A DNA stretch of 486 bases from Escherichia coli (GTDB lineage: Bacteria > Pseudomonadota > Gammaproteobacteria > Enterobacterales > Enterobacteriaceae), in NCBI RefSeq assembly GCF_003334765.1, contig NZ_QOWT01000120.1; one strand, written 5' to 3'. The number at the start of each line of letters is the position of its first letter. The stretch's first letter is position 1. Below are positions 210-255 of the stretch, in pieces. Under the pieces are notes generated by a model. That model did no database searches. It worked only from the letters and a program-made list of their open reading frames with translations, and had not been told where the DNA came from. Position numbers and translations under genes: made by a program.

Positions 210-215
210 CTTAAG

Positions 216-221
216 TTCTCT
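216..221 (-). promoter_or_regulatory. Possible weak Shine-Dalgarno-like element for the toxin
   Basis: On the minus strand the sequence upstream of the toxin start reads ...CAGTTACAGAGAACTTAAG-ATG. The purine-rich AGAGAA lies about 6-7 nt upstream of the ATG. It is a weak match to the AGGAGG consensus and is called by position only. Confidence 0.3.
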
Positions 222-255
222 GTAACTGGTAGTGCTAAAGGTGAGATATTCGGGG

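Follow-up and report, generated by a model that had tools for sequence, protein, structure and literature searches.

An open toxin leader with a minimal Shine-Dalgarno core in a CbeA/CbtA-family toxin-antitoxin operon of Escherichia coli

The CbeA/CbtA pair of Escherichia coli K-12 (YeeU/YeeV, encoded in prophage CP4-44) is the founding pair of the type IV toxin-antitoxin (TA) systems. Work on the K-12 proteins, and on these only, has shown that the toxin inhibits FtsZ/MreB and that the antitoxin neutralises it without binding to the toxin (PMC5624674, PMC3874152). Neither protein of the family autoregulates its operon (PMC5371832). Two further K-12 pairs, YafW/YkfI in CP4-6 and YfjZ/YpjF in CP4-57, belong to the same families, and the gaps between antitoxin and toxin genes in K-12 have been given as 20, 20 and 88 nt (Wen et al. 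2017, PMC5371832); we obtained 88 nt for cbeA-cbtA, 20 nt for yafW-ykfI and 20 nt for yfjZ-ypjF. Here we analysed a stretch of 486 nt of E. coli DNA (the window; assembly GCF_003334765.1, contig NZ_QOWT01000120.1) that carries the junction of such a pair. As in type II TA operons such as relBE, the antitoxin gene lies upstream in one operon, and the toxin ribosome binding site (RBS) is predicted to be weaker than that of the antitoxin (PMC5535158). Canonical type II operons have overlapping or abutting, translationally regulated genes, whereas those of the window neither overlap nor abut, and in type II operons with the antitoxin upstream the toxin RBS is located inside the antitoxin coding region, whereas here it lies wholly in the spacer. 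Translationally coupled TA genes have a stop and a start codon that overlap or are a few nucleotides apart, and the upstream ORF contains the downstream RBS; in the window they are separated by a gap of 46 nt.

Both genes are encoded on the minus strand. A CbeA/YeeU-family antitoxin gene, of which the window includes the 3′ part (486..256, assigned by translation, Pfam and PDB), extends past one edge and terminates with a TAA codon at 258..256 according to the ORF translation. The CbtA-family toxin gene starts with an ATG at 209..207 (PGAP and PF06755 alignment), and its 5′ part (209..1, translation and Pfam) runs past the other edge. The intergenic spacer (255..210) reads CCCCGAATATCTCACCTTTAGCACTACCAGTTACAGAGAACTTAAG on the minus strand; it is composed of A15 C14 G6 T11 and contains no ATG, GTG or TTG in any frame. 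The stop codon begins 49 nt upstream of the A of the ATG and, since 49 mod 3 = 1, the two genes are in different frames. A non-overlapping 46-nt spacer between genes in different frames was what the initial annotation had described, and both points were confirmed, as was its naming of the two genes as antitoxin and toxin. The antitoxin matched Pfam PF06154 (CbeA_antitoxin) with E = 6.9e-54 over residues 18-117, the YeeU structures 2inw and 2h28 in PDB with E of about 1e-79 and the YfjZ structures 2ea9 and 2jn7 with E of about 1e-41. The toxin matched PF06755 (CbtA_toxin) with E = 5.5e-63 over model positions 1-112 of 112, a domain that was present in all 120 toxin homologs listed, while NCBIfam gave no match for any of the four proteins tested. 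Judged by these similarities, the pair belongs to the CbeA/CbtA (YeeU/YeeV) type IV TA family. Because position 1 of the PF06755 model coincides with toxin residue 1, the alignment supports the ATG at 209..207 as the true start, and the start corresponds to the aligned M1 in almost every one of 79 family pairs located by tblastn.

When 5,426 complete E. coli genomes were searched with the window by megablast, a 100% identical locus was retrieved in strain ECCWS199 (NZ_CP032237.1, hereafter L001), where PGAP annotates cbeA at 5857-6231 and a 'TA system toxin CbtA family protein' at 6278-6655, that is, with the same gap of 46 nt. At L001 the pair is situated in a tRNA-Phe-associated island, in a cassette with the order antirestriction - RadC/JAB - DUF987 - antitoxin - toxin - DUF5983, likewise found at L002, L003, L004 and L005. 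The K-12 CbeA/CbtA locus has the same Pfam families, gene order, non-overlapping genes and island context, with DUF987 upstream and a 4-nt overlap between the toxin stop and DUF5983/yeeW, and its proteins are ∼90% identical to those of the window outside the antitoxin tail (90% for the toxin). The 88-nt spacer of K-12 cbeA-cbtA cannot be aligned with the 46-nt allele, so that BLAST matches the query in two pieces covering 87% of it; K-12 cbtA has AGGA as its core, 12 nt ahead of the ATG, in contrast to AGAGA in the window; and the antitoxin of K-12 ends in …YPTPEMKN, unlike that of the window. YafW/YkfI and YfjZ/YpjF share the families, the gene order, the absence of overlap, a ACGAGAGC-type minimal Shine-Dalgarno (SD) core and a G-poor spacer with the window. 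Their toxins are 58-63% identical to its toxin, and their gaps are just 20 nt, a class that is within the range of efficient translational coupling, as opposed to the 46 nt of the window.

Two observations concern the sequences on either side of the stop codon. The C-terminal tail of the antitoxin after ...YPT (residues 118-124; window 256-275, minus strand) lies outside the Pfam domain and varies by allele (LAPATTS, PEMKN, QR), and because of this difference between alleles the tail and the spacer can be regarded together as one hypervariable zone. In addition, the toxin frame is open across the spacer and for ∼50 codons into the antitoxin gene (window 210-365, minus strand), and 55 of the 66 unique family spacers contain no in-frame stop in the toxin frame. 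This open frame probably accounts for the CbtA proteins with an N-terminal extension that gene callers sometimes predict, which appear as database entries of 168-205 aa; proteins P0001, P0005 and P0010 are examples.

The non-overlapping layout had been singled out in the initial annotation as noteworthy for a TA operon, a view that the family as a whole did not bear out. To the loci already described we added 80 further ones, taken from species-representative genomes, mostly of Enterobacterales, and placement of the antitoxin stop and the toxin start by tblastn yielded 79 antitoxin-toxin pairs out of 85 loci. None of the 79 pairs had overlapping or abutting genes, and none had a gap shorter than 10 nt. 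The gaps were 19-89 nt long with a median of 44, plus two of 294 nt in which an extra ORF is inserted, and the 46 nt of the window fell in the middle of the 19-89 nt range. The frame offsets were distributed 41/21/17 over the 79 pairs, which follows no rule and takes away the significance that had been attached to the change of frame. As for E. coli itself, the spacer allele of the window (76-nt query) was found in 2,032 of the 5,426 complete genomes, and among seven further E. coli alleles six are annotated with a gap of 46 nt and the most divergent one with 49 nt. The gap, as annotated, is real but no statistical anomaly, and the layout, invariant in this type IV family and published for K-12 (PMC5371832), is ordinary and already described for CbeA/CbtA. 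In itself the gap matters little: this E. coli TA family, which is thoroughly annotated, has such a layout as standard, and over a third of the complete genomes carry the spacer allele of the window.

The spacer can be divided into two parts according to how far the alleles diverge. Its 5′ 29 nt (255..227) are variable, pyrimidine-rich and apparently unconstrained in sequence: the mean pairwise difference among eight E. coli alleles was 0.155, close to that of third codon positions (0.16-0.18). Its 3′ 17 nt (226..210), GTTACAGAGAACTTAAG, form a conserved ribosome-binding region, with a pairwise difference of 0.044 among the eight alleles and of 0.000 among the seven that are 46 nt long. This divergence of 0.044 versus 0.155 indicates that constraint on the sequence is confined to the RBS-proximal part and that further upstream only the composition is kept. 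The conserved part contains AGAGA (221..217), a minimal SD-like core whose GAG (220..218) ends 8 nt before the ATG. In agreement with the weak SD-like element of the initial annotation, the duplex of AGAGA with the anti-SD was computed at -2.9 kcal/mol. Of the 66 unique family spacers, 65 had a core of the AGAG/GAGA or AGGA type at -9..-15, the AGGA variant in four length classes. Mean SD pairing over the 66 toxin starts was -2.96 kcal/mol, weaker than the -6.21 kcal/mol of 51 K-12 genes and the -6.83 kcal/mol of the cognate antitoxin starts (p about 1e-15 each), and random 20-mers gave -2.46 kcal/mol. The SD-like core of the family's toxins thus pairs as weakly as random sequence. The predicted probability of being unpaired over -20..+10 was 0.654 for toxin starts, 0.510 for antitoxin starts and 0.439 for random positions, and on these folding predictions the toxin RBS would be unusually open.

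Although the 66 unique spacers cannot be aligned across the 14 clusters into which they group at 60% identity, they have a common composition. Their G content was 12.4%, and after removal of the last 15 nt it was 10%, with 37% C and 31% T, compared to 23% G in the coding DNA on either side and 20-21% in control spacers of the same operons. Start triplets were scarcer than in shuffled sequences: all unique spacers together contained 9 (52.8 +/- 6.4 expected), and without the last 15 nt 6 were left (28.6 +/- 4.5 expected), while the same-operon controls, trimmed in the same way, had 16 (21.5 +/- 3.8 expected). When only the 14 cluster representatives were considered, 4 start triplets were found versus 14.1 +/- 3.2 expected, a value reached by 1 of 1000 shuffles. 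Of the NTG triplets in the spacers, 31 of 40 were CTG, the only one that is not a start codon (p = 6e-9; 48% in the controls). Avoidance of ATG, GTG and TTG in all frames therefore exceeds what G depletion explains. Taken as a family-wide grammar, the minimal SD, the depletion of G, the avoidance of start codons and the open site constitute a small new descriptive result.

A processing site or a small regulatory structure in the spacer had also been put forward, together with the remark that no convincing stem-loop could be discerned. The remark was borne out and the suggestion was not. Folding of the minus-strand RNA 270..190 gave an MFE of -3.0 kcal/mol (z = +0.24), and 105 of 200 shuffles were at least as stable; neither a 161-nt context (310..150, minus strand; z = +0.84) nor the antisense RNA of the plus strand (190..270; z = +0.07) folded better than shuffles. 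For seven E. coli alleles RNAalifold returned nothing meaningful: the energy over 114 columns was -7.7 kcal/mol, the covariation term came to -0.6 kcal/mol, and the sole helix of the consensus in the spacer consisted of 4 invariant pairs. Rfam at E <= 1 over 4.5 kb had no match in the operon, its only hit being weak, unrelated and 1.8 kb downstream of the spacer (L001 8082-8168). No intrinsic-terminator-like site was present in the spacer and no repeat touched 210..255. The spacer is without stable or conserved RNA structure.

These results, together with the near-synonymous drift of the 5′ 29 nt, make it very unlikely that a processing site, a small regulatory structure or a binding site for an sRNA or protein in the spacer controls the toxin. 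What speaks for such an element is that the GAG motif is conserved despite pairing with the anti-SD at a random level, which in principle allows for another reader of it, and that the fold of YeeU is RelE/YoeB-like (Arbing 2010, cited in PMC5086665). The motif, however, stands at the correct distance for an SD, and the level of toxin mRNA is the same after deletion of the antitoxin (PMC5371832). The latter result also disfavours an action of the antitoxin on the toxin mRNA, a candidate prompted by the RelE-like fold. Transcription of the toxin apart from the antitoxin, from a promoter within the spacer, is more improbable still: beyond the gap itself nothing specific points to it, no sigma-70-like site was detected on the coding strand in or near L001 6232-6277, the spacer is C-rich and not AT-rich, and the 19-20 nt spacers of paralogs are too short to hold a promoter.

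The spacer is probably the ordinary toxin leader of a type IV TA operon, on which initiation would be de novo, uncoupled and dependent on a minimal SD, at a level somewhat below that of the antitoxin. According to this reading, the last ∼17 nt would serve as an RBS with a 3-bp GAG SD core that is normally spaced from the ATG, and the rest would be filler, variable in length and sequence yet kept unstructured, poor in G and devoid of start codons. Loading of ribosomes would most likely occur de novo at the open site, uncoupled from translation of the antitoxin. In vivo, coupling is optimal below 25 nt and its efficiency drops steeply with distance (PMC7538156; PMC12548453), and RRF-depletion data argue for de novo initiation as the main mode in E. 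coli and against reinitiation as a major one (PMC7538156). Since 46 nt is beyond the <25-nt optimum, mostly independent initiation of the toxin, as proposed in the initial annotation, can reasonably be inferred.

The proposal that this initiation may also be inefficient was mildly supported. With its minimal SD the toxin would be initiated at a rate somewhat under that of the antitoxin, which is strongly equipped with an SD. In a crude energy sum of SD pairing, start codon and the cost of opening -20..+13, the toxin was ∼1 kcal/mol worse than the antitoxin and was the worse of the two at 49 of 66 loci (Wilcoxon p = 1.5e-4); the median antitoxin:toxin ratio derived from the sum was about 1.7, in a comparison that is biased because antitoxin starts were picked by best SD. 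The weak SD is in part compensated by the unusually open site, and the handicap that the model predicts is modest, not severe. In E. coli, SD strength correlates poorly with translation efficiency (PMC7043885); being by itself a poor predictor, it lets the toxin start be called no more than putatively inefficient. That the toxin is translated more weakly, or has the weaker RBS, is well established for type II TA systems (PMC5535158). Growth was unaffected by deletion of all three K-12 antitoxin genes (PMC5371832), which is consistent with a low native output of toxin.

The closest general parallel to such a site is offered by the unstructured or standby-type leaders and SD-independent starts of E. 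coli, which are likewise open, A/C-rich and G-poor around the start and rely little on an SD (PMC7043885). They represent a general principle and not a family. We know of no description of start-codon avoidance tens of nucleotides upstream for leaders of this type. Depletion of start codons so far upstream is not obviously required by simple de novo initiation, and it fits scanning or other models equally well. In a scanning model, ribosomes that have terminated on the antitoxin would slide along an obstacle-free spacer and reinitiate at the toxin ATG, so that toxin synthesis would be a fraction of antitoxin synthesis. A near absence of start codons in all three frames, a lack of structure and a minimal SD would each be expected of such a runway, and 70S ribosomes have been reported to scan over +39 and +73 nt in vitro (see the review PMC12548453). 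Against it stand the steep distance dependence of coupling in vivo and the RRF-depletion data cited above (PMC7538156, PMC12548453). The length of the gap, moreover, is not conserved (19-89 nt), and at L019 and L022 another ORF precedes the toxin, yet the spacer is of the same type. We consider this model unlikely.

In E. coli, prophage genes and genes acquired horizontally are silenced by Rho, and the rut sites on which it loads are C-rich, G-poor and unstructured stretches of about 70-80 nt of untranslated RNA. A rut-like tract at the junction would allow Rho to terminate transcription within a poorly translated toxin cistron and leave less toxin mRNA than antitoxin mRNA. Family-wide, a zone of ∼100 nt around the junction (-80 to +20) has more C than G (C 0.26-0.37, G 0.08-0.20), with a G minimum of 0.077 at -40..-21; in L001, the 80-nt segment at -80 shows C 0.35 and G 0.12. 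The zone is also predicted to be open, as expected for Rho loading, although this criterion of composition is not specific and only 46 nt are untranslated. The 20-nt class of spacers leaves little untranslated RNA, DUF5983 and other downstream genes, which overlap the toxin by 4 nt, presumably depend on the transcript, and a literature search for a link between bicyclomycin and cbeA/cbtA-type genes found nothing relevant. Toxin and antitoxin mRNAs were both reported to be low, with no polarity noted (PMC5371832). On balance, Rho loading at the junction appears quite improbable.

The two models have in common that the spacer grammar would be a selected device, a ribosome runway or a Rho-loading tract, and not a by-product, and we find this doubtful. 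If true, the toxin:antitoxin ratio would be set post-transcriptionally in a TA family that, in contrast to type II systems, can buffer dosage neither by autoregulation nor by binding between toxin and antitoxin. The grammar provides a concrete hypothesis for a low dosage of the toxin in a type IV system without autoregulation.

Several further features of these loci were observed in the course of the comparison. Wherever DUF5983 (yeeW-like) is annotated downstream, its start overlaps the toxin stop by 4 nt (L001 6652-6655, L002, L003 and L086-L092), while YkfI and YpjF (L004/L005) are without a downstream DUF5983 gene. By this overlap, the tight and coupled-looking junction of the cassette is the one between toxin and DUF5983, not the one between antitoxin and toxin. 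A conserved extra ORF of ∼76-80 aa (MTHACKISD...DAEQGINW...) without a Pfam match lies between a CbeA-like antitoxin and a CbtA-like toxin at two Trabulsiella odontotermitis loci (L019 and L022, 2207-2500) and one Citrobacter amalonaticus locus (L009, ∼2211-2441). At the two Trabulsiella loci the toxin begins 46 nt past the stop of the extra ORF, behind a G-poor tract with AGAGA.

In Yokenella regensburgei (L010 1615-2878 and L012 1622-2878), the antitoxin is followed by tandem toxins, the first a divergent CbtA-like protein of 121-124 aa that is 48% identical to YkfI/YpjF and the second, ∼100 nt further on, a full CbtA gene. At three loci (L030, L040 and L043) a CbtA-family toxin lacks a CbeA homolog in the 400 nt before it, and at L030 the toxin is preceded by a 215-aa ORF. 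Enterobacterial cbeA/cbtA loci also occurred on contigs labelled Collinsella, Lachnospiraceae and Clostridiales, which are MAGs, and 'Chryseobacterium sp. 18061', an isolate assembly (L006, L008, L073, L039 and L044). L006 and L008 are ∼90% identical to E. coli and L073, L039 and L044 are more distant; these contigs are probably misbinned or contaminant. Finally, in E. coli CFT073 (L091 357-731) the antitoxin belonging to a 46-nt allele is annotated as a pseudogene with an internal stop, and the downstream toxin is intact. This suggests that the toxin is tolerated in CFT073, perhaps through cross-neutralisation by paralogous antitoxins, by analogy with what has been reported for K-12.
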